Part shown: one piece after another, positions 13,957 to 63,002 of the stretch | Layout of the letters: the number at the start of each line of letters is the position of its first letter | Numbering within the stretch: position 1 is the first letter of the stretch | DNA from: Candidatus Falkowbacteria bacterium | Lineage (GTDB): Bacteria > Patescibacteriota > Patescibacteriia > UBA11705 > JABHMO01 | Length of the DNA stretch: 64,000 nt | NCBI GenBank assembly: GCA_016214755.1 | Contig: JACRNX010000031.1 | Location: forward strand, 18,020-82,019 | Direction: 5' to 3' | Program-made: the position numbers and the translations under genes | The notes under the pieces: model-generated | Seen by the model: only the letters and a program-made list of their open reading frames with translations | What the model was told of the DNA's origin: nothing | Database searches by the model: none

Positions 13957-15933
13957 TTATTGTTTCATCAATTTTTCCCAACGCGTCATCGCTTCGTCTA
14001 AATGCCAATACTGCTTGACGAAATACTGAATTTTCTCTCGGTTATTTTGTGACGATTTTAATACCAATTCATTAATTTTCTCTCTTAATTCATCAACGCT
14101 ATATGTTTTCGCATAAAATTCTTCGTGTCCTTTCAGCGGCGACATAAACATCCAAGCGCTTAATACTGGAATCACGACATAACAGCCGAGCGCCAGCGCT
14201 TCCAGCGCCACGGCTGAATCGCCGACTATAAGGATTTTCGCGTTTTGAAGCAATTCATTTATTGGCCTTTGTCTAATGCAAAAATTATTTTCAATGGACT
14301 CGATTTCTAATTTTTTAAAGACGCCATCGAGCGGAAGCGTTGGATGTCCTTTAAACCATATTTTAAATGAATTCGTACCATAAAACGCGCTTTTGACGAG
14401 CGAAATTATTTCTTCTGTCTCCGCGCGGCTGGCTGAAGTCGCGACAACGATTAAGTTATCTTTTGGAGGAAGAATTTGTCTCAACTTTTCATTAAGATAT
14501 AAAAACCGCGTCGCTTCGATTTCTTCCACGCGCGGATAATACGATTGCCTCAATAACGAAGCAGTAATTCCGCCATTGGCCGCGACAACATCATCGACAG
14601 GATAATCATATTTATTTTTTGAAATTTCAACTTGATCGCGGAAATAGAAAAAATAATTCGACGAAACGGAAGTGTGGACATAGCCGATTGTCTCCATCGT
14701 TGGCACGAACATCCGCTTGGCCGCGTTAAGAGCGATTTCCCACGTGTGCATTTCCGCGAAATGCAAGCATTTGCCAGAAAGGGGTAGTCGTTTAAAAGCG
14801 TTGCAAAATAATTCAAGATAGATCAAACTTTCCAATCCCTGCCAACCAACGAAAGAACGGTCGTTCATTTTTTTTATTATCACCGAATAGTCGTTTTGAC
14901 CGAATAACCGCGTGATTTCAGCGTTTAATTTTGTTTTAACCCTTAAATATCTATGTGCCAGCGATGCCCATTGTCGGCAAACGCGCAAAACGCCGGCAAT
15001 AGTTAAAAATTGTTCGAGCAAATAACCATTTTCACCTTTGCTTCGCAGTTGTTTCGCCAGATGAACCGCGTCGCCGTAAGTTCGATTATCAACATAAACG
15101 AACAGCCACAACCAAATAATTTTTTCTTTTATGCTTTTTATCAAGGGTTCGAGTTTCCCCAAAAATTTATTTTCTAATTGTCCATTCTTGACTTTAGCTG
15201 GATCCGCGCACGGAAAATAACTGCAGATTAATAACCCATTATCCTGACTGCCAGCGAATATGGGAATTCGGCCGAGAGCGATTCTTACCTGGATTGCCCG
15301 AATCATCCGGCAGACAAACGTTAAAAAAGCTCTGGCAAAAATTATCGGCAGTCGGTTAGATTGATGCAAGTATCGTTTGATAAGTTTCGATCTTGAAATG
15401 TTTTTCCGCTGTTTACTTTTTAACGCTATGTATTTAATTTTCCGTTGTTGACAAATCGCGCTGATCGCTTGTTTTAATTCCCTATCTTCAACAACGATAC
15501 AGCAATGACTAATATCATAAATGTCAATCGCGCTGGCGATTGCTTCCAGCTGGGCGATCTTAAATAATCCCGAGTTTTTTATCGTATTCTTTTCCGCCAA
15601 TTGCGAGAACCACCAGGCGGAAACATCTCTCCGCGCGATATAAAAATATTGTTTAACATTAACGCCATTGACTATAATTTCACCAGCCGCGCCGATTAAC
15701 TTGGCTATCCTTTCGCGCAGTTTATCAACTTCTCGGTCAATGCTGGCCGCTGTCGGCAGGACTTCCGGATTTATATTGTTTTTTTTAAATAACGCGGATT
15801 TAACAGAGTTAATTATGTCCGGATTCGAAGTCAACGGGAAAAGGAGGCCTTTGCTCTTTGGACAATCCGCTGATTTAATTTTCAATATTGACGACGCGTC
15901 AATCGCATTGTCAAAAATAAATAAATTTTTCAT
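13957..15933 (-). CDS. large soluble protein, possible GT-B-fold glycosyltransferase-like or surface-carbohydrate biosynthesis protein
   Basis: 658 aa. The C-terminal KILIVGDSAVALEALALGCYVVIP resembles the GT-B C-terminal EX7E-like region. No firm family assignment from sequence alone. Confidence 0.3.
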   Translation of the reverse strand: MKNLFIFDNAIDASSILKIKSADCPKSKGLLFPLTSNPDIINSVKSALFKKNNINPEVLPTAASIDREVDKLRERIAKLIGAAGEIIVNGVNVKQYFYIARRDVSAWWFSQLAEKNTIKNSGLFKIAQLEAIASAIDIYDISHCCIVVEDRELKQAISAICQQRKIKYIALKSKQRKNISRSKLIKRYLHQSNRLPIIFARAFLTFVCRMIRAIQVRIALGRIPIFAGSQDNGLLICSYFPCADPAKVKNGQLENKFLGKLEPLIKSIKEKIIWLWLFVYVDNRTYGDAVHLAKQLRSKGENGYLLEQFLTIAGVLRVCRQWASLAHRYLRVKTKLNAEITRLFGQNDYSVIIKKMNDRSFVGWQGLESLIYLELFCNAFKRLPLSGKCLHFAEMHTWEIALNAAKRMFVPTMETIGYVHTSVSSNYFFYFRDQVEISKNKYDYPVDDVVAANGGITASLLRQSYYPRVEEIEATRFLYLNEKLRQILPPKDNLIVVATSASRAETEEIISLVKSAFYGTNSFKIWFKGHPTLPLDGVFKKLEIESIENNFCIRQRPINELLQNAKILIVGDSAVALEALALGCYVVIPVLSAWMFMSPLKGHEEFYAKTYSVDELREKINELVLKSSQNNREKIQYFVKQYWHLDEAMTRWEKLMKQ

Positions 15934-21685: not shown

Positions 21686-24109
21686 TTATTGAAAAAACAG
21701 TTCTCGGTAGCGCGCTTGGTATTCGACAAACACCCTGTTACCTTTCTCGTCAAATTTTTCAGCGCGTTTTATGTTTTCCCATTCATCCCTGGAAAATTTA
21801 ACATATAACGGAAATGTTCGCTGAAGACCTTTTAACTCTTCGTAGCTTAACGGTTGATTTCTTAACGGCACGCTGTCAAGCAGTTGATAAACTTTGTCTT
21901 GCGGCGTTAAATAACCTTTCTCAAGACAAAATTTATGTATTTGCGTCCCTTTGTACGGCGTCATTAAATAGCAATTCATCGTACGCGGATTGATTAAACG
22001 GTTGAATTCTATGGTGTCAAATATCAGCTCGCGCGTCTCTTCAGGAAATCCAATGATATTATTAACAGTGTATGATAGGCCGAATTTTTCGACGATTTTC
22101 AGCGCGTTTAGCATTAATTCGTTCGTGCAATGCCGATTAAGCATTCTGGCGCGAAATTGTTCATTGCCGTGCTCAACGCCAAATTGCATGCTGTCGCAAC
22201 CCATCTCCTTCAATATTTTTATTTTTTCTTCGGTGACCGTCTCTGGTCTTGATTGGCACCAAAATGGAATTTTGATTTCTTGATATAAATCAGAAATTTC
22301 TTTCAATTCTTCAACTGTCCTGGCGAGAAAAGATTCAGCGTTGAAATTAACATAGTCCGGATTATATTTGTGTACGAGATGTTTCATCTCGTCAATAATT
22401 TTTTTAGCGGATTTTTTGCGGTAGTATGCGCCGCATTGATTTTGTTGAAATAATTCTCTTAAACGCGGCGCTTCGCAATAAGTGCACGCGTACGGACAGC
22501 CGCGATCAAGTTCAAGATGGACCATGGTGTAGATTTTCCCGAACATCGGCCGGTAAAGCCGCTCTTTGCCGAATATATCAAAATCAATGACTGCGAGTTT
22601 GTCTAAATCAACAAGCGGCCGCAGCGGATTCTTTATAATTTCGCCGTCTGGCCGTTTTATCCATAAATTTTTAATATCGCAATAATTTTGCCCTCGCGCC
22701 ATTCGTTCGCAAAGTTCAACCAGCGCCTCCTCGCCCTCGCCGAGGCAGACGATATTAACAGAGTCGAGATTTATCACCTCTTCCGGCGAAAAGGTGGCAT
22801 AAACGCCGCCGGCGATAACAGGGACATGAAAATCTTTGATGGAATTGAGCAGCGCGCGGCCAAGTTCAAAAGTATCTTCAACTAACGTAATAGCGATTAA
22901 ATCTGGTTTATAATTTTCAACTTTCTGTTTCAAATCATCGCTGATATTCGTCTCTTTTAATTTTATGCCTGTCTTTTCATAGCTAAACGGTTTGACCTGC
23001 AACAACTCAACTTTTTTTAATTCAAAATTGATATTCTCGGTTTTATAAAAAGTGGTGTCAAAGACATCGGTCTCGATTCCCTTTTCTCTAAGGCAGGCGG
23101 ATAATTGACTGATATGCAGTGGAATTAGCGTCGCCATCATTGTGTTTGGATAAATAAACAAAACTTTGAATTTTTTTGAAGCTAAATTTGACTCGTTAAT
23201 ATTTACTGGCTGACTGGTTTTTATCAGCGGTTCTTGACAGCCAGATAATTCATGATGTATCTCTTCAAAACATTGGAGCAATCCCTGTCCCATATCCAAA
23301 TAAAACGAACTGATGTATTTTCGTCCAATCTTCGGATTGTATGAATACGGCGTCACCTGATAATGGTCTTCAGGGTTTTCCTGTCTGAACTCCATCGGGA
23401 ATTTATTGCCCAGCGCTTCATTAATCATGGTCAACATTTCTTTTGATTTTATCGGATGATGGCCGGACAAAATCACATGCTGGTTGATAAAGTTTTGTTC
23501 CAAAATTTCCACCGAGCACCTAGCCGCGTCTTCGACATGAATATATTCCCTCGTTTCTTCACCGCTGCCCCAGTATGAAATTTTTTGTTCTTGAATTATC
23601 TGCTTCAGCAAACGATAAATCGGATTGCTGTCGTCCGCGCGCGGACCGTACAATGAACCATAGCGCACGATCGTGTAAGGGATATTATATTTTTTTGAAT
23701 ATTCCTCAATATACGCCTCGCAGGCCTGTTTGCTGCTTTTATAAAATGAGCCGGCTTTACTATAAACGTAAACCGAAGAAGCAAAAATATAGCGCTCGAT
23801 TTCTTCGTCTTTTATGGATTCAAGAATATGAGCGTTTCCCAAAATATTGCTTTTTATCGTTTCGAGCGGCAAATTTGAAGCCCTGTCTAAATCGGCCAGT
23901 CCGGCGAAATTATAAACAGCCTTGGCTCCGCTGACAGTTTGCTTCACTTTTTCCAAATCCAAAATGTCGCCGATTATCATTGCTTGCCCTGATTTTAAAT
24001 ATTTTGATTCTTTTAAATCGAAAATCACTACCTGATGACCTTTATCGGTCAGCGCATCGGCGACATGGCTGCCGAGAAATCCAGAACCGCCGAAAACAAT
24101 CGCTTTCAT
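21686..24109 (-). CDS. fusion protein: NAD-dependent epimerase/dehydratase (SDR) domain + cobalamin-binding radical SAM domain
   Basis: N-terminal MKAIVFGGSGFLGSHV ... YKSSK is an SDR. The centre has a B12-binding-like Rossmann domain (KVLFIYPN...DLIAITLVEDT). Downstream is ELDRGCPYACTYCEAP, a CxxxCxxC radical SAM cluster motif. The track ORF begins at a TTG (24154); the ATG at 24109 is used here. Confidence 0.75.
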   Translation of the reverse strand: MKAIVFGGSGFLGSHVADALTDKGHQVVIFDLKESKYLKSGQAMIIGDILDLEKVKQTVSGAKAVYNFAGLADLDRASNLPLETIKSNILGNAHILESIKDEEIERYIFASSVYVYSKAGSFYKSSKQACEAYIEEYSKKYNIPYTIVRYGSLYGPRADDSNPIYRLLKQIIQEQKISYWGSGEETREYIHVEDAARCSVEILEQNFINQHVILSGHHPIKSKEMLTMINEALGNKFPMEFRQENPEDHYQVTPYSYNPKIGRKYISSFYLDMGQGLLQCFEEIHHELSGCQEPLIKTSQPVNINESNLASKKFKVLFIYPNTMMATLIPLHISQLSACLREKGIETDVFDTTFYKTENINFELKKVELLQVKPFSYEKTGIKLKETNISDDLKQKVENYKPDLIAITLVEDTFELGRALLNSIKDFHVPVIAGGVYATFSPEEVINLDSVNIVCLGEGEEALVELCERMARGQNYCDIKNLWIKRPDGEIIKNPLRPLVDLDKLAVIDFDIFGKERLYRPMFGKIYTMVHLELDRGCPYACTYCEAPRLRELFQQNQCGAYYRKKSAKKIIDEMKHLVHKYNPDYVNFNAESFLARTVEELKEISDLYQEIKIPFWCQSRPETVTEEKIKILKEMGCDSMQFGVEHGNEQFRARMLNRHCTNELMLNALKIVEKFGLSYTVNNIIGFPEETRELIFDTIEFNRLINPRTMNCYLMTPYKGTQIHKFCLEKGYLTPQDKVYQLLDSVPLRNQPLSYEELKGLQRTFPLYVKFSRDEWENIKRAEKFDEKGNRVFVEYQARYRELFFQ

Positions 24110-24160
24110 ATTAATGATTTTAAAATATTTTCCGAAGGATATAGTCCTGCCCAATTGTTT

Positions 24161-26086
24161 CTATCGTTCGCGTAATACTTTTAATAACTCATCGCTATCA
24201 TTTATTAATCCGCCGCCTGTCGGATTGCCAAGCGTTTGCTTCAACGCGTTAATAAATATTTTCATCTGCTCGACATTGCCAATGCTGACGCGAATGCAAT
24301 CGCTGAGTGGGCAGTTCGCGACGCCGGATTTTATCAGGATTTTTTGTTCGCGCATTTTTTGTTCTAGCTGAACGCTTTTTTCATGACTGCCAACCTTGAT
24401 ATTGATAAAATTCGCGTAGCTTTTATGAAACGGCAGATTCATTTCCGCGAGCGACTTTTCCAAATATTCTTTTCCGGCGGCTGTCTCGCGCAAATTATTT
24501 TCGACGATCCGCGGATGATCAATAATATATTCCGCGAAACGGACGCCGAATGCGTTCGCTTCGTACATTGGCCGGACTTTGTGCAAGCATTCAATTATTT
24601 TTTCATTGCTGACGACAAAACCCAAACGGCCGGCGGCCAGCCCTTGAGCTTTGGAAAATGTTCTAGTTATCATTAAATTCGGATACTTCTTTATTAAATG
24701 AATCGCGGTTTGACTATAATATGGATAATACGCTTCATCTATTAAAACAATTACTCTGTTTGCGGCCGCGCGATTAATAATTTTTTCAAGCTCGGCCGGA
24801 GACAGGACCGTCCCGGTCGGACTGTTCGGATTCGCCAGACAAATTAATTTTGGCTTTTGAATTTCAATTTGATTGATGATTTTTTCCGTGTTAATGCACA
24901 ATCCGTCTTCATAATTAATCAAAATCGCTTTCGCCTGAAACATTTTTGTGTAAACGTCGTACATCGCGTATGTCGGCCAAAGCGTCATTACTTTATCATC
25001 CGGTTCCACAAAAATTTCAAAAGCCGCCTTTATTCCCGCGTCCGAGCCGGCCGTGATATATAAATATTCTTGGGCGACGCCTAAACTCTTGGCTGTCTTT
25101 TTATACAGCGCGTCTAGCTCGGGATAGGCGGAAATAAATTCCGGACTGATTAATCGTTTTATTTCGTCTAAAAATTCAGACGACATTGGTATTAAATTTT
25201 CGTTTTTGTCTAATCTTAAGTATTCTAAACGGCTTTGTTGAGGGTTTCCAACCCGAGTTAAATCCAGCAAATGTTTTTTTGTCGGCAATTTAAAATTTTT
25301 AAAATCGTATGGCGTCGCGCGTTCCGTAAAACCATGTTTATTCAACCAATAAACCACGCCCGGGATTTGCCATTCAAAATCAACATCGCAGCCACCCCAT
25401 TGTTTGAGAGGATAAATTTTTTGCCCCATCCATTTTTGCGGCAATAATCCGCTCGCGAGATTTTCCAAACAACGCGGCCGAACGATGGACACGCCCATAT
25501 CCGCGAACCAAACATCGCCTTGCGAATCGCGGTCGCAATTCAATGTTCTGGGGTCGCCGAATGTTTCAAACGCCACGAACGGCTCCAGCAATCCCTGGGA
25601 ATTTTCCCGGCGCGCGCGCAATGGGCTCCACATGTTGTATGGCGAAACCGTGACCGCTGAATCAAAATCCGGACGTTCCTTTAATACTGCGATCCCCTGG
25701 TCAATTGTTTCTGATAAAATTGTCGCTGCATTGCAAAAAAACAAAACAAGCAATTCAACTTCTTTGCCTTGTTGCCGATAAAATTCCTTGATGATTTGAT
25801 ACCCGTGCGCGAACGCGTCTTCGCCCAGCGCCTGCTTAGTCGCTAATTCAGCCGGCCGATTGATTATTTCCAGCCCATATTTTCGTCCAATCTCTTTGTA
25901 TTCCTCTGAATCAGTGGAAAAAAATATTTTGTCAACGTATTTTGAATTTAATCCAGCTATCATTGGATAAACCATAAGCGGCCGGCCTAACACTTGATAG
26001 GTATTTTTCCCGGGAAACCCGACACTGCCGGCTCTTCCGAGTAAAAGTCCGGCAATAATTCTATTGTTTTCTTTACTGTCCGACAT
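24161..26086 (-). CDS. fusion protein: NeuA/KdsB-like CMP-sugar cytidylyltransferase domain + class I/II (HisC/CobD-like) PLP-dependent aminotransferase/decarboxylase domain
   Basis: N-terminal LLLGRAGSVGFPGKN ... FFSTDSEE matches the acylneuraminate cytidylyltransferase family. The C-terminal half has LRLDKNENLIP and ITRTFSKAQGLAAGRLGFVV, the HisC/CobD-type PLP lysine motif. Confidence 0.7.
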   Translation of the reverse strand: MSDSKENNRIIAGLLLGRAGSVGFPGKNTYQVLGRPLMVYPMIAGLNSKYVDKIFFSTDSEEYKEIGRKYGLEIINRPAELATKQALGEDAFAHGYQIIKEFYRQQGKEVELLVLFFCNAATILSETIDQGIAVLKERPDFDSAVTVSPYNMWSPLRARRENSQGLLEPFVAFETFGDPRTLNCDRDSQGDVWFADMGVSIVRPRCLENLASGLLPQKWMGQKIYPLKQWGGCDVDFEWQIPGVVYWLNKHGFTERATPYDFKNFKLPTKKHLLDLTRVGNPQQSRLEYLRLDKNENLIPMSSEFLDEIKRLISPEFISAYPELDALYKKTAKSLGVAQEYLYITAGSDAGIKAAFEIFVEPDDKVMTLWPTYAMYDVYTKMFQAKAILINYEDGLCINTEKIINQIEIQKPKLICLANPNSPTGTVLSPAELEKIINRAAANRVIVLIDEAYYPYYSQTAIHLIKKYPNLMITRTFSKAQGLAAGRLGFVVSNEKIIECLHKVRPMYEANAFGVRFAEYIIDHPRIVENNLRETAAGKEYLEKSLAEMNLPFHKSYANFINIKVGSHEKSVQLEQKMREQKILIKSGVANCPLSDCIRVSIGNVEQMKIFINALKQTLGNPTGGGLINDSDELLKVLRER

Positions 26087-29997: not shown

Positions 29998-30903
29998 TTA
30001 TTTTTTTATTATGAAATTTATTATGCCTGTTTTTTTAAATATTTTCGCGATAAAGTTTATTGGAATGAAAACAATCAAAAGTAGATTGTAATATTTCGTT
30101 CTTCCATAGCGCAGTTTGCTCTTGAATAATTTAGTTGACTGAAAATAATTTTGCGCGGACAGCGCCCAGTGTGAAGTATTTAAATTATAAGTTATTTGAC
30201 AATTGTCAAAACCAGCTTGCTGAACTGTTAAGCTCAAAGACGCGGGCGTGAAATCGTACAAATGGCGGGGCGCGTGAAGTCCGCCCCAATATTTTTTAGA
30301 TAAAATAAAATCCCACGACGCGATGTTTGGCAGTTCGCCGATGACGTAACCGCCGGGCTTTAATTTTCTTTTCGCTTTTTTTAATAGTTCGACGGGCGAA
30401 GACACATGTTCAAGCAAATGGTCCATTATCACGAGATCGAAATAATCATCGGGGAAATCAGCGTTCTCAAAAGTGCCAATGTAAATACTTCGCCCTTCGC
30501 TAATGCCGACGTTCGCGATTTCACTGTTAAATTCAACGCCGACGAAATGCCAATTTGTCCTTTTCGCGAAATAATCCATGTAATGTCCGTCTCCACAGCC
30601 GATATCAAGTATCCGGGCATTGTCGCCAATCAACGATTTATAAAAAGCCAATCGTTTTTTTAATCGGAGACGCTGTAATGTATTAAAAATTTTTGATTTT
30701 ACGCGCGCGTAATTATAACCATGATATTCCTTCGGATAAGCTCTAAGTAATTCACCGGTCATGAGTTTCGGCTCGAGTTCGCCTAAGCCGCAGCGCGGGC
30801 ATTGGTAAAGCGAAAAAAATCCCGGGTATTCATATTCGAAATCCTGACAGTTGCTTTCAAGGCGAACCTGTTCATGATTACAGACAGGACAATTATTATT
30901 CAT
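29998..30903 (-). CDS. SAM-dependent methyltransferase with N-terminal zinc-ribbon
   Basis: CPVCNHE...CPRCG four-Cys ribbon followed by ILDIGCGDGHYMDYF (class I MTase motif I). Confidence 0.7.
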   Translation of the reverse strand: MNNNCPVCNHEQVRLESNCQDFEYEYPGFFSLYQCPRCGLGELEPKLMTGELLRAYPKEYHGYNYARVKSKIFNTLQRLRLKKRLAFYKSLIGDNARILDIGCGDGHYMDYFAKRTNWHFVGVEFNSEIANVGISEGRSIYIGTFENADFPDDYFDLVIMDHLLEHVSSPVELLKKAKRKLKPGGYVIGELPNIASWDFILSKKYWGGLHAPRHLYDFTPASLSLTVQQAGFDNCQITYNLNTSHWALSAQNYFQSTKLFKSKLRYGRTKYYNLLLIVFIPINFIAKIFKKTGIINFIIKK

Positions 30904-30914
30904 AAAAAAGACGG

Positions 30915-31943
30915 CTATAAATTTCTATAATAAACCGGCGATTCGTTTGCTTGGTTTATTTTTTTTGTCACGCCATTTATGTAAGCGGCTTCTCCAGCCG
31001 GACGGCAGTATTTATAAGAAGTTTGAAAATATGAAAAGCGAGTCATCTCGCGCCATATATCCTTTATCTCTTCTTGGCGGATATTGCCGAAACTGACATG
31101 ATTTAGGGAACAACCCATGACATCGCCGTACGGCGAAAGGCAAAATTTTTCTCGGCCGGCCGGACATTGCGACCGGCCTTCATAATTCAAAGAAAAACAT
31201 AATCTCATCCGCGGATATTTTTTTATCAAAGCGTCGAGCTGGCGCCAGTCCTCGTCGCTTAATAACACGTCTTCGTTATTTTCCCAATTCCCTACTGGCA
31301 CGGCTGGCGCCGGATTTAGCAGTAGTCCGTTTATCGAAGCGAACTCGCAAATGTCAGCGAGGCGGTTAATGTTTTTATGGGTTATGGTAAAAGAAATCGC
31401 CGTCAATAAAGAATATTTTTTCGCGTATCCAATTACATTCATGGCTTTGTCGAAATGGCCTTGGACGCCCCTTAGTTCATCATTTTCTTCGGCTGTTAAT
31501 CCATCTAAACTGACTTGCAGATAATCAATCATTGATTCTTTAAGCCGGTGAACATCATTTTCGTTGACTGACAAACAATTTGTCAGTAAGCCGATAATCG
31601 TCTTCCGCGGCTGAAGCGCGGCGATGATTTCAAACAAATCCGGCCTCATGAAAGGCTCGCCGCCCGTGATAACAGCGCAAAACGCGTCTAAGCGCAAGCA
31701 TTTTTCCCAGAATAATTTTACTTCCTCGGGCTGAATAAGCGTTTTGCCGCCGCATTTTAATTTGCTGGAAAAACACATTTCGCATTTTGAATTGCAATCC
31801 GGCGTGATTTGAATCTCCACGTTGCGAAGAGGTTTTCGCTTAAGAAATTTGCTTTTTATCACGCCATTAACTAAGCGCTTTGCGGCCAGAGGTTTGCGTC
31901 GCAATAATTCACAATAAGAAATGATTTTTTTTATCGGCAACAT
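30915..31943 (-). CDS. radical SAM enzyme with C-terminal SPASM/twitch-like Cys-rich domain
   Basis: ITPDCNSKCEMC (CxxxCxxC) near the N-terminus. The C-terminal auxiliary cluster region is SQCPAGREKFCLSPYGDVMGCS. Confidence 0.75.
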   Translation of the reverse strand: MLPIKKIISYCELLRRKPLAAKRLVNGVIKSKFLKRKPLRNVEIQITPDCNSKCEMCFSSKLKCGGKTLIQPEEVKLFWEKCLRLDAFCAVITGGEPFMRPDLFEIIAALQPRKTIIGLLTNCLSVNENDVHRLKESMIDYLQVSLDGLTAEENDELRGVQGHFDKAMNVIGYAKKYSLLTAISFTITHKNINRLADICEFASINGLLLNPAPAVPVGNWENNEDVLLSDEDWRQLDALIKKYPRMRLCFSLNYEGRSQCPAGREKFCLSPYGDVMGCSLNHVSFGNIRQEEIKDIWREMTRFSYFQTSYKYCRPAGEAAYINGVTKKINQANESPVYYRNL

Positions 31944-32637: not shown

Positions 32638-33606
32638 TTAGACAATGGACTTTTTTATTTCACTATCGCGCAAGAAACAGCCGTCGCAACCAGGAATCGT
32701 GTGCGCCAATCCGGCTTTATGTTTTTCGCGGATTTCGTTTAATCGCGTAGAATGCCACATATCAAAAATTGAAGCGTTTCTGACGTTGCCAAGCGCGATT
32801 AGTTTTTCCTCGTCATGATTGCACGGCAAAAAGGTCCCGTCCCACATCACGGCCGCTCTTTGCCATATTTGCGGGCAAGTCCAATCAGCGCTAATTCCAA
32901 GATGTTTATTTTTCATATCTTTAAAATCAAGGTAGGCGACCTCGTCAGCGCCGTTATCAAGCCAGAAATCCTTGTATTGCTCGTAAACGTCTTTCAATTC
33001 AGGCACGGCGACGGTTTGAATTCTTATTTTCGGATAATCAACTGACAGCGCTTTTTTTCTGGCGACAAGGTTACGTATATTTTGAACCACAATTTCAAAA
33101 TTTGAACCCACGCGATGCTTCTCATATATTTCCTTCGTGTATCCCTCGAAAGAAATTGAAATCCTGTCCAATCGAGCGTCAATCAATTTCCGCGCCATAT
33201 CGTCATTTAACAACAAACCATGCGAATTAAAATAAACATCAATTAATCCCCTGTCTTTCGCGTATCGAACAAATTCGTGAATTTGAGGATGAAGAAGCGG
33301 TTCGCCGCGGAAATTGAACTTAACGCCGCACAATCCTTTGTCCGCGCCTTCGTCAATAATTTTTTTAACTAAGTCGAAGGTTATAAATCCGCCGATGATT
33401 CTCTCTCTATTGTAGCAGAAAGTACACTTTAAGTTGCACGCGCTTGTTGATTCAATATCAATGAACAAAGGAAAACCCCCGACATAAAATGATTTTGGCC
33501 ACTCTTCCCAATGACGGCGATATTGCTTGAATTTTTCGTCATCCTTATCTAAAACGTTTTTTCCGCCCAAAGAATGAAAGTTCGAATTTACGCTGATTGT
33601 CGGCAT
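32638..33606 (-). CDS. radical SAM enzyme with C-terminal SPASM domain
   Basis: ESTSACNLKCTFCYN (CxxxCxxC). The C-terminus has CPQIW...CNHDEEKLIALGN...GCDGCF, a typical SPASM auxiliary-cluster Cys pattern. Confidence 0.75.
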   Translation of the reverse strand: MPTISVNSNFHSLGGKNVLDKDDEKFKQYRRHWEEWPKSFYVGGFPLFIDIESTSACNLKCTFCYNRERIIGGFITFDLVKKIIDEGADKGLCGVKFNFRGEPLLHPQIHEFVRYAKDRGLIDVYFNSHGLLLNDDMARKLIDARLDRISISFEGYTKEIYEKHRVGSNFEIVVQNIRNLVARKKALSVDYPKIRIQTVAVPELKDVYEQYKDFWLDNGADEVAYLDFKDMKNKHLGISADWTCPQIWQRAAVMWDGTFLPCNHDEEKLIALGNVRNASIFDMWHSTRLNEIREKHKAGLAHTIPGCDGCFLRDSEIKKSIV

Positions 33607-55303: not shown

Positions 55304-55310
55304 ACATGAA

Positions 55311-59249: not shown

Positions 59250-61016
59250 TTATGTTATGGCTGAAATAATTCTCTCGGCTACTCTGGTCGCGCCGTTCGC
59301 ATCTATGGCGCCAACTAAACCTTTTTCAATTTGAGACATTTTTGCAAACGCGTTAAAGGTTTTGTGAAATTGTTCTTGGTCAATCTCGCCAATCAGGCCA
59401 AAATATTTAAAATTTTTTGTCTTCAAAAAATTTTTATTTAGTTTTTCTTCGTGTTGCGCTATCGCCAAAACCGGAACCTGCAAATAAAACGCTTCGTAGA
59501 TTGATTGGCCGAATCCCAATATCACGAAATGACAGCCAGCCAGCGCTTCGGCGAACGATTTGTTGTCGCCGAGAACAAAGGTATTCAGATTTAATTTATT
59601 GATTTGCCTTTTCACCTGCGATCTTTTTTTATTAAACGGGCCCAGATATACGCCGAATGGCTGTTTGAATCCCCCGTTATCCAAAAACTTTAGAATTTTC
59701 CAAGTTATGTTTTTAGGGTCAGCGCCGCCACCGCAAATTAAAACATATTTCCCCTTTTTTCTTTTTTGCCTTTTAATCTCGTTTCGGATGATCGCGTATT
59801 GCGCGCCGAAAATTATATTTTTCCATTTAAATGGAATCACGCTGTGGCCATTGGGAATAATGTACAAATCCGCGCCATTTACTTTTTTGTCTAGCCGATC
59901 AATGACAATAACCTTTCTCGCGCCACGCCTGATTTGTTTAATGCTGACATCAAACAGCGTATCAATTATTACTCCAGTAGCGTTGTTTGACTTCAAAAAA
60001 TTATAAAAATCATTTTCTGAATCTATGACAAAATAATTAAAATTATTTTCAGACAATGTCTTTTCCGTCTGTTTGTTTCGTCGGGCGACAAAAGTTATTC
60101 CGCAAAAATATTTGTCTTGCAATTCCTTGGCCAGCGCCATCATTCTTTGCAAATGGCCCAGCCCGATTTTTTCAGAAGCGTCAGTTCTGATTATAAATTT
60201 ATGACTAACGTCTATTTTTGATTTTTGCTTTACTTCCGCGTTGATCAACCACAATTTTTTGTCCTTTTTATAAAGCGCGATTACTTTATTCAGATTAATA
60301 AGCTCTTTTCGATTTTTCCATAAACGATTGTAAATTTCCCTCATAAATCGCAAGTCGGAAATTGTATCAACCGAGAGTCGGAGCATATGTTTATTAAAAG
60401 GAGCGCGCAAATTCACTTCAAACCATTTGAATTTCTCAGAATTTTCTTTTAAATAAATATTCAAATGTTCTTTATGATAGGGCTGACTCGCATTCTGATA
60501 CTGGACTTCAAGCGCGGACATCTTGCAGACATCAAGCCCTTCGTGCTGGCATTGCTGGCCACTTTTTAATTTGGCTGAATCAGCTTTTGTCTTTATCATT
60601 CCCGTGACTACATCGTCAACAAATTTTGGGTCAATCAGCGGACAATCGCCGCAAATGCCGGCAATGATGTCCGCCTTTACCCATTTCGCCGCGGCCAGAA
60701 CGCGACCGACGACATCGTTGATATCGCCGTGATAACGAAAAACTCTGTAACCTATATTTTTGACATATTTTGCCAGCGGATTATCGGTTTTATCGCTCGA
60801 AGTAGCTAAAATTATTTCATCAATCGTTTTAGTTCTTTTTAAACGATCAAAAATATGCCAAATCATCGGTCGGCCGTTGATATCAATTAATGCTTTGCCC
60901 GGCAAGCGCGAGGATGACATTCTCGCCCTGACGATAGCTACAACCCGTGTTCTTTTTTCCATATGTCTCTTGTTTTTAACAATGGCCGCAATCCATCGCT
61001 CGGGTCTGCCCGCCAT
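59250..61016 (-). CDS. fusion: SpsF/PseF-like cytidylyltransferase + PseG-like UDP-sugar hydrolase (UDP-2,4-diacetamido-2,4,6-trideoxy-L-altropyranose hydrolase family)
   Basis: N-terminal VVAIVRARMSSSRLPGKALIDINGRPMIWH (CTP_transf_3 family). Central-to-C-terminal IIRTDASEKIGLGHLQRMMALAKEL resembles the PseG signature (IRADAS..G.GH..RC..LA). Overlaps the upstream NeuB-like gene by 79 nt; the alternative internal Met at 60962 reduces this to 25 nt. Confidence 0.65.
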   Translation of the reverse strand: MAGRPERWIAAIVKNKRHMEKRTRVVAIVRARMSSSRLPGKALIDINGRPMIWHIFDRLKRTKTIDEIILATSSDKTDNPLAKYVKNIGYRVFRYHGDINDVVGRVLAAAKWVKADIIAGICGDCPLIDPKFVDDVVTGMIKTKADSAKLKSGQQCQHEGLDVCKMSALEVQYQNASQPYHKEHLNIYLKENSEKFKWFEVNLRAPFNKHMLRLSVDTISDLRFMREIYNRLWKNRKELINLNKVIALYKKDKKLWLINAEVKQKSKIDVSHKFIIRTDASEKIGLGHLQRMMALAKELQDKYFCGITFVARRNKQTEKTLSENNFNYFVIDSENDFYNFLKSNNATGVIIDTLFDVSIKQIRRGARKVIVIDRLDKKVNGADLYIIPNGHSVIPFKWKNIIFGAQYAIIRNEIKRQKRKKGKYVLICGGGADPKNITWKILKFLDNGGFKQPFGVYLGPFNKKRSQVKRQINKLNLNTFVLGDNKSFAEALAGCHFVILGFGQSIYEAFYLQVPVLAIAQHEEKLNKNFLKTKNFKYFGLIGEIDQEQFHKTFNAFAKMSQIEKGLVGAIDANGATRVAERIISAIT

Positions 61017-61828
61017 TCACGGTCAATTGATTCGCTTTCCTTGCAACGTTTCACTCCGTCGCCGTCGCTAAGGGTGTAATCAGCTGTCAAATTAACATCT
61101 GCCTTGATGTCTCGGATAACTTTTTCAATTTGTTCCGGAAGCCAATTATATCCGCGCGCGAATTCTTCCCCTTTTCCGTCCAAATCCAAATGGAATTCTA
61201 TGCTTGAGGCCTGCCATCTAAACGCGGCGCGCGACAAAACTTTTTCATCAACGCTGTGATCTGACCAGCCGGCCAAACAGTTAAACATTTTTCTGTATGT
61301 TTCCAAGACCGACAAATTGCATTCAGCCGCCGGCGCGGGATAACTGGACACGCAATGGTACAAGGTGATTTCTTTGGCGTCGGATTTTTTTAAAATATTA
61401 ACTGCCTTAGCCACTTCTTCAGTATTGGCCATTCCTGTCGCGAGTTTAATCGGTTTTCCTGTCCACGCGCATTTTTTCAACAATCCCTCCCAAAGAATTT
61501 CGTATGACGCGATTTTAAAATAATCAACATAAGGCGCGAGAATATCCACTGCTTTCTGATAAAACGGCGTGCAGGCGAATTTCAATCCCAACCCGTGGCA
61601 TTCATCAGCCAATTTTGGAATAAATTCAACGGGCAATTCCCATTTTTTCCGGCTGCGATGCTCCTCGCTTGTGGCCAATATCTCGGACGCGAAAAGTTCG
61701 TCAATTTTAAATAATTGGAATTTAACGCCGTCGCAGCCGATTTTTTTCGCGATTTGGATAAATTCCAGACAGCGGCCGAGATTCTGGCTGTGATTGCTTG
61801 AAACTTCGGCGATGAATTCAACATTCAT
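60938..61828 (-). CDS. NeuB-family nonulosonic acid synthase (pseudaminic acid synthase PseI-like), lacking an obvious C-terminal SAF domain
   Basis: IAEVSSNHSQNLGRCLEFIQIAKKIGCDGVKFQ matches the NeuB/PseI/SpsE N-terminal TIM-barrel signature (AE.S.NH.G....A..MI..A...GADAVKFQ). Confidence 0.7.
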   Translation of the reverse strand: MNVEFIAEVSSNHSQNLGRCLEFIQIAKKIGCDGVKFQLFKIDELFASEILATSEEHRSRKKWELPVEFIPKLADECHGLGLKFACTPFYQKAVDILAPYVDYFKIASYEILWEGLLKKCAWTGKPIKLATGMANTEEVAKAVNILKKSDAKEITLYHCVSSYPAPAAECNLSVLETYRKMFNCLAGWSDHSVDEKVLSRAAFRWQASSIEFHLDLDGKGEEFARGYNWLPEQIEKVIRDIKADVNLTADYTLSDGDGVKRCKESESIDREWRADPSDGLRPLLKTRDIWKKEHGL

Positions 61829-61832
61829 AAAA

Positions 61833-63002
61833 TTAACAAAACTTTTTTATTATTGATTTCACATTCTCAATCAAATAACCTTGCTCATCGTCAGTCAATG
61901 AATAATAAATCGGCAAGCTAACGCATTCAGAATAATATCGGTCGGCGTTAATATATTTTTCAGCGTCATAACCTAATTTTTGGTAATACGAATTGCGATT
62001 GATCGGACGATAATGAATTTGCACTTTTATATTTTTCTCATGCAATTCGTCAAAAATTTGGCGGCGCTTGCTGATTAAATAATCATCGGCCAAACGCAAT
62101 ATATAAAGATGCCAAGCCGGATTGTATTTGCCTAAATCATAAAACGGCAATTTTATTCTAGGCTGTAATTCTGCAAAGGCCTCATTATATCGTTCGGCTA
62201 TCATCCGCCGTCTATTTAAAAACAATCCGACTTTTTTTAATTGGGAAATGCCCAGCGCGCACTGAAAATCAGTTAACCGATAATTGAATCCCAATTCGCG
62301 CATATCATAGCACCAAGCGCCTTCAGCCGCTGTCTCCTCATCTTTATAAATACCGTGACTGCGCAGCGCGCATAATTTTTCATATAATTTTTCACCATTG
62401 GTTGTAATCATTCCACCCTCACCGGTTGTCATGAGTTTCACCGGATGAAAACTAAACACCGCCATGTCTGAATGTTCGCAACTGCCGACTTTATGCCATT
62501 TCCCGTCCGCGAAATAATCCGCGCCCAGCGCGTGGCAAGCGTCTTCAATCACGATTAATTTATTCTTTTGGGCGGTTTCATAAATGCTGGGCAAATCAGC
62601 GGGCAATCCAGCAAAATGGACAGGAATAACCGCTTTGGTTTTTTCAGTGATTTTGTTTTGAATCTGCTTCGGGTCAATATTTATATTATTATAATCAATA
62701 TCAGCGAATATCGGCTTAGCGCCGACGTATAAAAGGCAATTCGCGGTCGCGACAAAACTGATCGGCGTGGTAATCGCTTCGTCGCCATACTCGAAACCAG
62801 CGGCTAACGCGGCGAGATGGAGCGCCGCCGTGCCCGATGAGACCGCAATCGCGAATTTTACGCCGCAATATTCAGCGAACGCGTTTTCAAATTCTTTAAC
62901 CCTTGGCCCTTGGGTCAGCCAATCTGAACGGATAACTTCAATCGCGAAATTAACATCCGAATTATCAATAAATTGTTTGCCGTACGGTATTATTTTGTCC
63001 AT
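61833..63002 (-). CDS. pseC: UDP-4-amino-4,6-dideoxy-N-acetyl-beta-L-altrosamine transaminase (PseC-type DegT aminotransferase)
   Basis: IPYGKQFIDNSDVNFAIEVIRSDWLTQGPRVKEFE near the N-terminus is the PseC-type signature. Fold-type I aminotransferase, 389 aa. Overlaps pseB by 38 nt. Confidence 0.8.
   Translation of the reverse strand: MDKIIPYGKQFIDNSDVNFAIEVIRSDWLTQGPRVKEFENAFAEYCGVKFAIAVSSGTAALHLAALAAGFEYGDEAITTPISFVATANCLLYVGAKPIFADIDYNNINIDPKQIQNKITEKTKAVIPVHFAGLPADLPSIYETAQKNKLIVIEDACHALGADYFADGKWHKVGSCEHSDMAVFSFHPVKLMTTGEGGMITTNGEKLYEKLCALRSHGIYKDEETAAEGAWCYDMRELGFNYRLTDFQCALGISQLKKVGLFLNRRRMIAERYNEAFAELQPRIKLPFYDLGKYNPAWHLYILRLADDYLISKRRQIFDELHEKNIKVQIHYRPINRNSYYQKLGYDAEKYINADRYYSECVSLPIYYSLTDDEQGYLIENVKSIIKKFC

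Follow-up and report, generated by a model that had tools for sequence, protein, structure and literature searches.

The gene described here comes from a candidate-phyla bacterium, Candidatus Falkowbacteria, where it belongs to a giant gene cluster for surface sugars, within a stretch of 64,000 nucleotides that was analysed as a whole and is referred to as the window. It encodes a cytidylyltransferase (CTase) joined to a HisC-family, PLP-dependent aminotransferase (AT; Table 1) and is read in a single frame from an ATG start with zero internal stops. The four motifs quoted in a preliminary description of this DNA were all located in the protein (GSVGFPGKN at aa 20-28, STDSEE at aa 57-62, LDKNENL at aa 292-298, and TFSKAQGLAAGRLGF at aa 476-490), and its division into 240 and 380 aa was about right, refined here to ~260 aa, a linker of ~25 aa, ~335 aa, and a 20-aa tail. 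The AF2 model contains two well-folded domains, with pLDDT values mostly of 80-91 in the CTase domain and a disordered linker at aa 261-285 (pLDDT <50); at a pTM of 0.55, the packing of the domains carries no confidence. A search for orthologous fusions returned 15 further full-length CTase-AT clusters (42-73 % identity) from independent assemblies, with carriers including Kuenenbacteria, a Micrarchaeota archaeon, and a Nitrospirae bacterium, and NCBI furthermore holds an identical protein from a Candidatus Falkowbacteria MAG. A frameshift or stop codon between the two halves, which the preliminary description named as a refutation of the fusion, does not interrupt this ORF, and the recurrence in independent assemblies together with the identical NCBI protein therefore excludes an assembly or frameshift artefact. 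The best 150 representatives of an exhaustive representative search contained no full-length fusion, which is too rare to show there. When fused and free members were compared, the fused ATs fell into about six groups interleaved with free ATs; the fusion has arisen several times independently. The protein is thus a real two-enzyme fusion that retains the catalytic residues of both domains. In line with the preliminary description, it is not a characterised enzyme, and literature searches on CTase, HisC, and radical SAM gave irrelevant matches only, among them a cyanophage paper that treats TagD and KdsB.

Table 1. Positions of the CTase-AT fusion, its domains, and associated genes in the window.
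Feature	Position	Strand	Evidence
CTase + HisC-family AT fusion ORF, complete, 641 aa	24161..26086	-	ORF listing, HMMs, identical NCBI protein
NeuA/PseF-like CTase domain, N-terminal, aa 1-260	25307..26086	-	PF02348, PseF, NeuA structures, 56-member alignment vs 1EYR, AF2
Inter-domain linker, flexible, aa 261-285 (~25 aa)	25232..25306	-	AF2 pLDDT <50
HisC-family PLP AT domain, C-terminal, aa 286-620	24227..25231	-	PF00155, hisC model, HisC structures, 19 fused + 73 free members
Cassette SDR (epimerase/dehydratase type) fused to B12-binding radical SAM; directly downstream of fusion	21686..24154	-	
Radical SAM-SPASM, cassette member, candidate ketone maker	32638..33606	-	Radical_SAM + SPASM; family next to CTase in 53 loci
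Second radical SAM-SPASM, conserved in CPR cassette versions only	30915..31943	-	Domain scan; syntenic in Kuenenbacteria locus L001
Class I methyltransferase, family travelling with AT variant; candidate N-methylase of new amine	29998..30903	-	
TIGR04326-family GT-B; candidate transferase for activated product	13957..15933	-	
Canonical pseudaminic-acid module	59250..63972	-	Pfam, NCBIfam
PseB	62965-63972	-	473.5 > 407.75 cutoff
PseC	61833-63002	-	472.1 > 423.5 cutoff
PseI-like NeuB	60938-61828	-	PseI 156
CTP_transf_3 + PseG fusion	59250-61016	-	PseG 107.5

The assignment of the N-terminal half to NeuA/KdsB-type synthetases is borne out by the Pfam profile PF02348 (CTP_transf_3; E 1.8e-11, 44.7 bits, cutoff 22.6, aa 13-85), a match that spans only positions 2-74 of the 217 in the profile. 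The PseF model of NCBIfam scored about 62 bits (62.2; aa 15-169), below its equivalog cutoff of 205.7. Matches with solved structures or curated models are exclusively to CMP-Neu5Ac (NeuA), PseF, and KdsB enzymes, those found by sequence in the PDB being NeuA enzymes only, and none of the models for IspD, TarI, LicC, and TagD matched the domain in the Pfam, NCBIfam, and structure searches. By these scores, the domain belongs to a distinct, unnamed subfamily that lacks a curated model and falls within neither the PseF nor the KdsB equivalog. The family comprises more than 5,500 clusters (60-76 % identical) across Bacteria and methanogenic Archaea, and its members are also found fused to radical SAM-SPASM, SDR plus radical SAM, 2-hydroxyacid dehydrogenase, methyltransferase, or PF01182 domains.

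For a residue-level comparison, 56 family members were aligned with NeuA (1EYR), whose active-site residues have been assigned roles (PMC2901514). The CTP site (R18, K27, N28, and R77 in fusion numbering; NeuA R12, K21, N22, and R71) and the Mg-binding D234/D236 (NeuA D209/D211) are preserved, with R18, K27, D234, and D236 conserved in 55-56 of the 56 members. All 56 furthermore carry R186 and R157 as equivalents of NeuA R165 and K142, the former of which salt-bridges the sugar carboxylate and is positioned by the latter (PMC2901514). As the region around R186 aligns divergently with NeuA, this equivalence is probable but not certain, and R186 is probably the carboxylate-binding Arg. The positions that read the N-acetyl and glycerol groups of Neu5Ac are occupied by other residues, which are invariant within the family. 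Also missing is the Gln of the Q-x-T-S-P / Q-G-D-E-P motif (NeuA Q104, KdsB Q98), to which F, M, or H is aligned; the family motif at this place is C118-N119-A-A/P, with an invariant N119 that may stand in for NeuA Gln104. Given this replacement of Q-x-T-S-P, the mode of sugar binding may differ considerably.

The C-terminal half had been described as a class I/II aminotransferase of the HisC type, which PF00155 (Aminotran_1_2; E 1e-47, 163.5 bits, aa 291-615) confirms, so that both proposed domain profiles matched, PF02348 above its cutoff, and the HMM searches did not place this half in a non-PLP family. With 251.9 bits, it stays under the equivalog cutoff of the hisC model (TIGR01141; 276.55), as does a free AT homologue (266.4 bits) in a split-gene version of the surrounding gene set, in which CTase and AT are separate (L005); the CobD model falls far short (124.8 bits, cutoff 290.55). 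In an alignment of 19 fused and 73 free members with E. coli HisC, the PLP-binding residues K479 (the Schiff-base Lys), D450, Y453, R487, S478, and Y321 (HisC K214, D184, Y187, R222, S213, and Y55) are conserved, R599 (HisC R335) is kept, and the N-terminal L-x-x-N-E-N motif is retained. Fold, subfamily, PLP ligands, the distal Arg (R335), and this motif are common to the fusion AT, HisC, and Cj1437, the latter two of which aminate ketones without an alpha-carboxylate. Unlike HisC, however, the fusion AT has a sub-cutoff hisC score, is fused to a CTase, lies in a glycan cluster, and carries S422 in place of the phosphate ligand N157 (Gln/Ala in some free members) and K586 in place of R322 (Lys in 58 of 92 members). 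In the loci examined, his genes were never found beside the AT, which always lies in polysaccharide clusters next to CTase, radical SAM, or SDR genes; many free homologues are annotated as 'histidinol-phosphate transaminase'. Small ketones that are phosphorylated or carboxylated are the usual substrates of enzymes of the HisC type, and the aminotransferases known for nucleotide sugars are of the DegT type, not the HisC type.

Among the neighbours of the fusion, the radical SAM-SPASM protein of the cassette has BtrN, a radical SAM alcohol dehydrogenase, as its best solved relative (4M7T; E 1.3e-8). The SDR encoded directly downstream has its counterpart in the Kuenenbacteria locus (L001) as a separate gene of 318 aa, and the TIGR04326 protein could, by its fold, be either a CMP-sugar glycosyltransferase or a CDP-alditol phosphotransferase of the TagF/TarL type. 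At the far end of the window, with its NeuB 35 kb from the fusion, the pseudaminic-acid module is predicted to supply a nonulosonic acid and has a CTase of its own, so that the CTase of the fusion would be a second, tailoring one. As in the known tailoring modules, there is an additional CTase that is joined to, or lies beside, enzymes for a keto intermediate: the window contains both the CTase-PseG and the CTase-AT fusion, and AT or FabG occupies the slot next to the CTase. Domain scans furthermore detected three ATP-grasp ligases in the window. A phosphonate (AEP) pathway, considered by analogy with known CTase-transaminase fusions, was discarded, since neither PEP mutase nor phosphonopyruvate decarboxylase domains turned up when the ORFs of the window and the listed related loci were scanned.

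The fusion is part of a larger pattern. Among 59 loci that offer 4 kb or more of flanking sequence to either side, SDRs were found within 10 kb of the CTase in 55, 2-hydroxyacid dehydrogenases in 45, HAD proteins in 41, radical SAM-SPASM proteins in 40 (31 adjacent), HisC-like ATs in 30, and B12-radical SAM proteins in 27. De novo clustering returned the same core, with TIGR04326-like proteins encoded in 54 of 88 loci and, next to the CTase, a radical SAM-SPASM family in 53 loci and an SDR family in 49; the TIGR04326 GT-B is the CTase family's most frequent neighbour. The CTase thus sits in a conserved cassette of BtrN-like radical SAM-SPASM, SDRs, 2-hydroxyacid dehydrogenase, HAD, methyltransferases, and TIGR04326 GT-B, which is large and widespread across many bacterial phyla and methanogenic archaea, yet without a name: no paper was found for TIGR04326, LIC13510, or PFTS, and the literature gave nothing on the cassette. 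Its sub-module of 2-hydroxyacid dehydrogenase and HAD (plus a cyclase) is highly conserved but does not occur in the CPR versions; accordingly, the window and the Kuenenbacteria locus keep CTase, AT, radical SAM, and SDR, while dehydrogenase and HAD are missing near the fusion. The dehydrogenase best matches models for phosphoglycerate dehydrogenase or glyoxylate reductase. A nonulosonate marker lies within 10 kb in 26 of 58 loci, and NeuB in only 16-19 of 58-59; with NeuB nearby in a minority of loci and distant in the window, the linkage to nonulosonic acids is therefore frequent but not necessarily universal.

The most telling feature of the cassette is a single slot beside CTase and radical SAM that is taken either by the AT or by a FabG-type ketoreductase ('rSAM CT AT 2HADH' vs 'rSAM CT FabG 2HADH'). 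Only the AT is present in 29 of 58 loci, only the FabG-type SDR in 19, neither in 10, and both in none (Fisher p = 4.2e-8). As they share one slot and never occur together, AT and ketoreductase look like alternative fates of a single keto intermediate. The presence of the AT is independent of the 2-hydroxyacid dehydrogenase (p = 1) and of the HAD (p = 0.4), and a methyltransferase family accompanies it (14 of 29 AT loci vs 3 of 29 non-AT loci, p = 0.003). The window itself contains a FabG-like gene, which was considered as a breach of this exclusivity and dismissed: it lies 16 kb from the fusion, beside DXS and ATP-grasp genes, and shares ~33 % identity with the cassette SDRs, compared to ~40 % among these.

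Several known systems resemble the fusion in part. In the butirosin pathway, a ketone is generated from a secondary alcohol by BtrN, a radical SAM enzyme with an auxiliary cluster, and then aminated by a PLP aminotransferase. This oxidise-then-aminate logic is the same as that proposed for the cassette, whereas the substrate is an aminocyclitol, the aminotransferase is of the DegT type, and no nucleotide activation is involved. In the biosynthesis of Kdo8N in Shewanella, KdnB and KdnA oxidise and transaminate the terminal hydroxyl of a 2-keto-3-deoxy acid prior to CMP activation by a KdsB-type enzyme; here, the genes are separate, the alcohol dehydrogenase is metal-dependent, and the substrate is an eight-carbon acid with a primary alcohol. 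A fusion of a LicC-type CTase with an AEP transaminase in Treponema denticola also yields an aminated product that is nucleotide-activated for glycan decoration, but its domains (NTP_transf_3 and a class V aminotransferase) are non-homologous to those described here and it needs PEP mutase. A similar architecture is that of EpaA (CTP_transf_3 plus aldo-keto reductase) and EpaB (adh_short_C2 SDR) from Acinetobacter baumannii prophages, which convert Pse into 8-epi-Pse (PMC12053666). As in our fusion, the CTase of EpaA is additional to the CMP-Pse synthetase of the pathway and bears a tailoring enzyme at its C-terminus, and the pairing of a CTase with a FabG-type SDR recurs in the FabG variant of the cassette, EpaAB remodelling pseudaminic acid at C8. 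The likeness is one of architecture. In contrast to EpaA, where the partner is an aldo-keto reductase and the outcome epimerisation, the HisC-family PLP aminotransferase that is the partner here should lead to amination, and the likely oxidant is a radical SAM-SPASM protein instead of an NAD(P) enzyme. Similarly, ElaABC, for which a role as CMP-Leg 8-epimerase with a CTase of its own has been described (PMC13656337), and AciABCD(E) (PMC5595891) are discrete, horizontally mobile sets that combine CTase, oxidant, and reductant at C8 of a 5,7-diamino nonulosonic acid (PMC13656337, PMC5595891). Exchange of AciE for AciB alters the C8 product (PMC5595891), a one-enzyme swap resembling that of AT and FabG in the cassette. 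These systems, however, rely on NAD(P)-dependent SDRs only, do not contain aminotransferase, radical SAM, 2-hydroxyacid dehydrogenase, or HAD, and have been described in Acinetobacter and Vibrio only, whereas the cassette extends over many phyla and methanogenic archaea.

Taken together, we propose, with a probability of about one half, that the fusion is a bifunctional tailoring enzyme for a nonulosonic acid on which a ketone is made, which is then aminated and activated with CMP. The sugar would come from the pseudaminic-acid pathway of the cluster, and one of its secondary alcohols, by analogy most likely that at C8, would be oxidised to the ketone, with the nearby BtrN-like radical SAM-SPASM protein as the most likely oxidant. 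Transamination by the HisC-like domain would give an amine, possibly methylated by the accompanying methyltransferases, while in the sister cassettes the FabG-type ketoreductase in the same slot would reduce the ketone instead. The CTase domain would join the sugar to CMP, either before or after tailoring, and the TIGR04326 GT-B probably moves the product onto the glycan. We infer the kind of sugar, the site of amination, the enzyme that makes the ketone, and the order of the steps, and the reading of the substrate as a sugar draws on genomic context and analogy. This model gives no role to the sub-module of 2-hydroxyacid dehydrogenase and HAD (and cyclase). Further points against it are the replaced Q-x-T-S-P motif, the divergent alignment around R186, the minority of loci with NeuB nearby, the usual substrates of HisC-type enzymes, and a TIGR04326 fold that would equally suit a CDP-alditol phosphotransferase. 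Dehydrogenase and HAD were also considered as the source of the N-glyceroyl group described in Tannerella forsythia, for which the respective paper names no genes.

Of the two options given in the preliminary description, the emphasised one was an aminopropanol-, ethanolamine-, or serinol-phosphate activated as its CDP derivative. In this scenario, the AT would aminate a small keto phosphate (e. g., DHAP to serinol phosphate, like Cj1437 of C. jejuni), the CTase would form a CDP-amino-alcohol, and a TagF-like GT-B would add a phosphodiester decoration, with glycerol phosphate and CDP-glycerol resulting in the FabG sister cassettes. That Cj1437 forms serinol phosphate is well established (cited in PMC11800397 and PMC12096443), the AT scores near HisC (251.9 vs 276.55 bits), which aminates a ketone next to CH2-O-phosphate, the exclusivity of AT and ketoreductase would equally fit a choice between serinol-P and glycerol-P, and structural comparison of the TIGR04326 protein places TagF and TarL among its neighbours. 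We nevertheless consider it unlikely, and the less supported of the two options, because all detectable relatives of the CTase are CMP-nonulosonate/Kdo synthetases while the IspD, TarI, LicC, and TagD models remain unmatched, because the probable carboxylate-binding Arg of NeuA is retained and invariant in the CTase family, because two of the three phosphate-holding residues of HisC are changed across the AT family (N157 to Ser, R322 to Lys), and because CobD-type decarboxylase models score far under their cutoff. Moreover, the HAD phosphatase of the core would destroy the very phosphate needed for CDP activation, and radical SAM-SPASM and epimerase-type SDR would be left without a role. The other option, an aminated keto-acid sugar that is subsequently CMP-activated, fits the pseudaminic-acid pathway, the second CTase, and the logic of EpaA/EpaB and ElaABC.

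The sugar acid could also be a different one, namely a 2-keto acid built by the cassette itself and not derived from NeuB: the 2-hydroxyacid dehydrogenase might, for example, oxidise C2 of an aldonic-acid phosphate and the HAD remove the phosphate, leaving a hex- or hept-2-ulosonic acid, which would then be CMP-activated and tailored by radical SAM, SDR, and AT or ketoreductase. Dehydrogenase and HAD (45 and 41 of 59 loci) are indeed commoner than NeuB (19 of 59), CTase fusions to 2-hydroxyacid dehydrogenase and to a 6-phosphogluconolactonase-like PF01182 domain occur, the sugar-reading residues of the CTase are unlike those of NeuA, and enzymes of the 2-hydroxyacid dehydrogenase family are known to interconvert gluconate and 2-ketogluconate (or their 6-phosphates). 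What makes this rather unlikely is that the window and the Kuenenbacteria locus manage without these two genes near the fusion and still have CTase, AT, radical SAM, and SDR, that the best model matches of the dehydrogenase are to phosphoglycerate dehydrogenase or glyoxylate reductase, and that we know of no CMP-hexulosonic acid of that kind. In another scheme, which we regard as improbable, the AT leaves the sugar untouched and forms, with a PGDH-like enzyme and the HAD, a small amino acid or alcohol in analogy to the serine pathway; the product would be attached later as a substituent, for example by the ATP-grasp ligases of the window, and the fusion to the CTase would serve co-expression only. 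PGDH-like enzyme, aminotransferase, and HAD phosphatase do constitute the logic of serine biosynthesis and are exactly the neighbours in the split-gene locus L005, the window has three ATP-grasp ligases, and CPR bacteria generally lack amino-acid biosynthesis. The AT is, however, independent of dehydrogenase and HAD (p = 1 and 0.4) and strictly exclusive with the ketoreductase of the same slot, its fusion to the CTase arose repeatedly, and the CPR fusion cassettes have no PGDH-like or HAD gene nearby. Finally, hisC as the best curated model and the annotation of free homologues could suggest an ordinary HisC of histidine biosynthesis fused by chance to a sialic-acid-type CTase, the halves being functionally unlinked; with its score under the equivalog cutoff, altered phosphate ligands, independent recurrence of the fusion, and consistent location in glycan clusters, never with his neighbours in the loci examined, this is effectively refuted by context.

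Nonulosonic acids cap surface glycans of bacteria and archaea and govern phage, immune, and cell-cell recognition. To our knowledge, the biosynthetic genes of natural 8-amino and C10 variants are not known, and knowledge of enzymes that modify nonulosonic acids has been called scarce (PMC5378307). If the proposed tailoring of a nonulosonic acid is correct, the fusion is a marker for one branch, the amino one, of a large mobile tailoring cassette, in which the choice of aminotransferase or ketoreductase in one slot acts as a simple genetic switch, and the combination of a HisC-type AT, a radical SAM dehydrogenase, and a dedicated CMP-sugar synthetase would represent new enzymology. More tentatively, and with considerable doubt, the cassette as a whole may represent a new and very widespread branch of sugar acids that are produced through radical SAM chemistry and activated with CMP; this branch would explain orphan sugars and have the fusion as its amino-branch enzyme. 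The SPASM enzyme might then oxidise or dehydrate the sugar, the B12-radical SAM proteins might C-methylate it and so extend the chain, a swap of one gene would set OH versus NH2 at a given position, and the unnamed CTase family with its >5,500 clusters would be the dedicated synthetase of such acids. Conceivable products of the fusion include 8-amino-8-deoxy or chain-extended amino nonulosonic acids. This would provide genes for two orphan structures: the 8-amino-8-deoxy nonulosonic acid in the O-antigen of Tenacibaculum maritimum (PMC3210612), where the paper on the O-antigen cluster makes no mention of nonulosonate genes, and the CMP-linked C10 ulosonic acids of Magnetospirillum, which are unassigned (bioRxiv 10.64898/2026.04.20.719630). 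The proposed tailoring of a nonulosonic acid also offers a testable assignment for a family of thousands of proteins that are now annotated as 'hypothetical' or, misleadingly, as 'histidinol-phosphate transaminase', and the cluster indicates that a CPR bacterium, episymbiotic and small in genome, devotes more than 55 kb to a single elaborate surface glycan.

The fusion is encoded by one uninterrupted ORF of 641 aa with an ATG start in the ORF listing, which contains all motifs quoted in the preliminary description. Its reading as a cytidylyltransferase (CTase) joined to a HisC-type PLP enzyme was borne out by Pfam matches to CTP_transf_3 (PF02348, aa 13-85, E = 1.8e-11, above the gathering score) and Aminotran_1_2 (PF00155, aa 291-615, E = 1e-47), the latter placing the C-terminal half in a PLP family. 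Among NCBIfam models, this half is nearest to HisC, just below the cutoff (TIGR01141, 251.9 vs. 276.55 bits), and far from CobD (124.8 vs. 290.55 bits), while the N-terminal half is nearest to PseF (62 bits over aa 15-169); the respective solved-structure matches are HisC entries (E about 1e-32) and exclusively CMP-Neu5Ac synthetases. NCBI holds an identical protein from a Candidatus Falkowbacteria assembly, and a search for orthologous fusions retrieved 15 more clusters of full-length fusions at 42-73% identity. As these stem from independent data sets, among them Kuenenbacteria, a Nitrospirae MAG and a Micrarchaeota archaeon, an assembly artefact is ruled out. The exact fusion is rare, with no full-length example among the best 150 representatives at 50% identity. 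AlphaFold2 modelling based on 14 fusions (mean pLDDT 79.5, pTM 0.55) gave two well-folded domains separated by a disordered linker (aa 261-285); CTase and aminotransferase (AT) look tethered, without a composite active site.

The genes of nearly the entire window form a single glycan cluster and run in one direction, on the minus strand; they encode Wzz, an initiating transferase, glycosyltransferases, Wzy and Wzx together with an NDP-aminodeoxyhexose module, a heptose-activation module and several B12-radical SAM enzymes. A canonical pseudaminic-acid (Pse) module occupies its upstream end, comprising PseB (score 473.5, cutoff 407.75), PseC (472.1, cutoff 423.5), a PseI-like NeuB and a separate CTP_transf_3-PseG fusion, so that the fusion studied here is the second CTase of the cluster. 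The PseI-like NeuB ORF is short (296 aa), lacks a SAF domain match and shares 79 nt with the following ORF. Surrounding the fusion are two radical SAM-SPASM (rSAM-SPASM) genes, three methyltransferases, a GT2, a polytopic membrane protein and an SDR fused to a B12-radical SAM domain, with a TIGR04326-family protein further downstream. The SDR stands alone, as a gene of 318 aa, in the syntenic locus L001 of Kuenenbacteria. The membrane protein is conserved only in CPR versions of the cassette (the window, L001 and L071), and its L001 orthologue shows weak likeness to PMT_2 (GT-C). Owing to the heptose-activation genes, the glycan probably also contains a nucleotide-activated heptose. The DXS-scoring gene has a FabG-like SDR and three ATP-grasp ligases as its neighbours; instead of serving isoprenoid synthesis, its product may act on a sugar, in a C2-branching or acyloin reaction. 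The DegT-B12-radical SAM fusion and the B12-radical SAM protein that follows it are architectures unusual for nucleotide-sugar tailoring.

Features of the glycan cluster around the fusion (window positions)
Feature	Position	Strand	Remark
TIGR04326 "surface carbohydrate biosynthesis protein"	13957-15933	-	also in loci L008-L087
SDR (NAD-dependent epimerase/dehydratase) fused to B12-binding radical SAM, 822 aa	21686-24154	-	directly downstream of fusion
CTase-AT fusion	24161-26086	-	
Polytopic membrane protein, 631 aa	26149-28044	-	no Pfam/NCBIfam family; immediately upstream of fusion
ATP-grasp ligases	38968-40254, 42776-43957, 43933-45066		
1-Deoxy-D-xylulose-5-phosphate synthase (DXS)-scoring gene	40236-42059	-	TIGR00204, 528 bits (cutoff 466)
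Heptose-activation module: SIS isomerase; NTP-transferase fused to HAD phosphatase; GHMP kinase	47768-48367, 54110-55363, 55311-56309	-	
DegT-type sugar aminotransferase fused to B12-binding radical SAM, 880 aa	48382-51024	-	
B12-radical SAM protein, 688 aa	51021-53087	-	after DegT fusion
Pse-pathway CTase fused to PseG, 588 aa, and adjoining PseI-like NeuB ORF	59250-61828	-	

With the N-terminal half alone as query, 5,536 clusters of the database scored E <= 1e-10; the majority are free proteins of about 253 aa that are 65-76% identical to it and nearly all unnamed. In GTDB genomes, the family extends over many phyla of Bacteria and also methanogenic archaea, at about 58-73% identity; archaeal carriers include Methanolobus psychrotolerans, Methanoregula, Methanoperedenaceae and Hadarchaeota (loci L012, L015, L019, L028, L042, L054, L056 and others). 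The 60-73% identity between bacterial and methanogen members implies that the cassette was transferred between Bacteria and Archaea or is under unusually strong constraint. Among 59 loci flanked by 4 kb or more in either direction, genes within 10 kb of the CTase comprise an SDR (55/59), a 2-hydroxyacid dehydrogenase (45/59), a HAD protein (41/59), an rSAM-SPASM enzyme (40/59, directly adjacent in 31), the HisC-like AT (30/59) and a B12-radical SAM enzyme (27/59); within this distance, NeuB lies in 16-19 of 58-59 loci and any nonulosonate marker in 26/58. De novo ORF clustering identified a TIGR04326-like protein of about 620 aa as the commonest partner (54/88 loci) and a 256-aa FabG-type SDR in 27 loci. 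For the TIGR04326 protein, a confident model shows a generic GT-B fold with a large N-terminal extension and structural neighbours that include TarL, TagF and WaaA; no description of its function was found in the literature that could be searched. Locus L005 represents a fully split version, in the order CTase, rSAM-SPASM, HisC-like AT, methyltransferase, 2-hydroxyacid dehydrogenase, HAD, SDR and cyclase. Ten loci (including L021-L024, L052, L056, L081, L082 and L085) carry a xylose-isomerase-like TIM-barrel (PF01261) between the rSAM and the AT or FabG gene.

Comparison of 58 loci revealed that AT and FabG-type SDR never co-occur (AT only in 29, SDR only in 19, neither in 10; Fisher p = 4.2e-8). 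The dehydrogenase, HAD, rSAM-SPASM, epimerase-type SDR and TIGR04326 protein are distributed independently of the AT (p > 0.2), and one methyltransferase family is enriched with it (14/29 AT loci vs. 3/29, p = 0.003). Both enzymes share one gene slot beside CTase and rSAM, as seen in gene orders such as "rSAM CT FabG 2HADH SDR HAD" versus "rSAM CT AT 2HADH SDR" (CT, CTase; 2HADH, 2-hydroxyacid dehydrogenase) or "CT rSAM FabG" versus "CT rSAM AT MT" (MT, methyltransferase), and both variants are found within the genus Methanoregula. Cultured carriers of the family include Methanolobus psychrotolerans YSF-03 (L012), which has the FabG variant, and Desulfovibrio sp. 7SRBS1. As AT and ketoreductase replace each other, the best explanation is that a single keto intermediate is either aminated or reduced. 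The FabG-like gene of the window was dismissed as an exception, being a peripheral cluster member that lies 16 kb away, beside the DXS-scoring and ATP-grasp genes, and shares about 33% identity with the SDRs of the cassette.

To assess the catalytic residues, 56 family members and 19 canonical CTP_transf_3 proteins were aligned; one of the latter was NeuA of N. meningitidis (sequence identical to 1EYR_A), whose residue roles were taken from PMC2901514. Equivalents of the NeuA CTP ligands R12, K21, N22 and R71 (R18, K27, N28 and R77 in the window protein), of the Mg ligands D209 and D211 (D234 and D236), and the probable equivalents of the carboxylate-binding R165 and the positioning residue K142 (R186 and R157) are invariant across the 56 members. 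Equally invariant are the replacements of the residues that read the N-acetyl and glycerol groups of Neu5Ac (Q166, R173, N175, Y179, F192 and F193 by D187, F194, D196, S200, L215 and P216), and C-N-A-A/P with an invariant Asn takes the place of the Q-x-T-S-P motif. With its CTP, Mg and carboxylate residues kept and its sugar readers replaced, the domain is therefore read as a putatively competent CMP-sugar-acid synthetase with a sugar specificity other than that of NeuA. Among 19 fused and 73 free ATs, all PLP ligands of E. coli HisC (K214, D184, Y187, R222, S213 and Y55) and its distal R335 (R599 in the window protein) are conserved, while two of three phosphate ligands for histidinol phosphate are altered (N157 to Ser, R322 mostly to Lys); the AT half belongs to the HisC family without being an orthologue of HisC.

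We propose, at about even odds (probability roughly 0.5), that the fusion aminates a nonulosonic-acid ketone and makes the CMP-sugar. A nonulosonic acid, Pse-derived in the window, would be oxidised to a ketone, which the HisC-like domain would aminate; the CTase domain would activate the sugar as its CMP derivative, the amine may be a target of methyltransferases, and the TIGR04326 GT-B protein would transfer the product. We infer the sugar as a nonulosonic acid and the order of activation and tailoring; candidate oxidants are the radical SAM enzyme of the cassette and its 2-hydroxyacid dehydrogenase, and the aminated position would, by analogy, be C8. The nearest solved relative of the cassette rSAM-SPASM is BtrN (E = 1.3e-8), which in butirosin biosynthesis turns a secondary alcohol into a ketone that is later transaminated.

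Of the two products envisaged in the preliminary description, the CMP-activated aminated keto-acid sugar matches this proposal, whereas a CDP-activated amino-alcohol is disfavoured and improbable: the CTase exclusively resembles CMP-ulosonate synthetases and invariably keeps the carboxylate-binding Arg, the AT phosphate ligands are changed, and a HAD phosphatase belongs to the cassette core. The AT/ketoreductase switch would be equally compatible with such a product, as serinol phosphate and glycerol phosphate would act alike, and so would the generic fold of the TIGR04326 protein. The strongly conserved sub-module of 2-hydroxyacid dehydrogenase and HAD (plus cyclase) is not accounted for by the nonulosonate model; it fits a cassette that makes its own 2-keto sugar acid, an unlikely but slightly better candidate than the amino-alcohol, and likewise a serine-like side group made by AT, dehydrogenase and HAD, which we consider about as improbable as the latter.

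The proposal takes its logic from published tailoring systems. A cassette that brings a CTase of its own, ElaABC, was described as a CMP-legionaminic acid 8-epimerase (PMC13656337), exchange of AciB for AciE changed the C8 configuration (PMC5595891), and the Tenacibaculum maritimum O-antigen contains an 8-amino-8-deoxy nonulosonic acid (PMC3210612). In EpaA, too, an additional CTase is joined to a tailoring enzyme, and the present fusion is thus of a kind already known. In line with the preliminary description, which did not recognise a characterised enzyme, the searchable literature held no description of a CTase fused to a HisC-family AT, nor of such a fusion in a radical SAM cassette with an AT/ketoreductase switch across Bacteria and Archaea. 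Through the fusion, a very large protein family without a name acquires a function that can be tested, and the cassette may provide the genes behind orphan ulosonic acids of the amino or chain-extended type; a published report describes C10 ulosonic acids linked to CMP without assignment (bioRxiv 10.64898/2026.04.20.719630).

In a rough NJ tree, fused ATs form about six groups interleaved with free ATs, the CPR clade of the window being nearer to free ATs (56%) than to other fused clades. Formation or splitting of the CTase fusion must therefore have happened several times, an indication that the two functions are coupled. The same CTase is also fused to rSAM-SPASM, SDR plus rSAM-SPASM, 2-hydroxyacid dehydrogenase, methyltransferase or a PF01182 domain. 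The HisC-like AT family, too, has other fusion partners, in proteins of 520-860 aa (P0278, P0318, P0333, P0372, P0380 and P0383).
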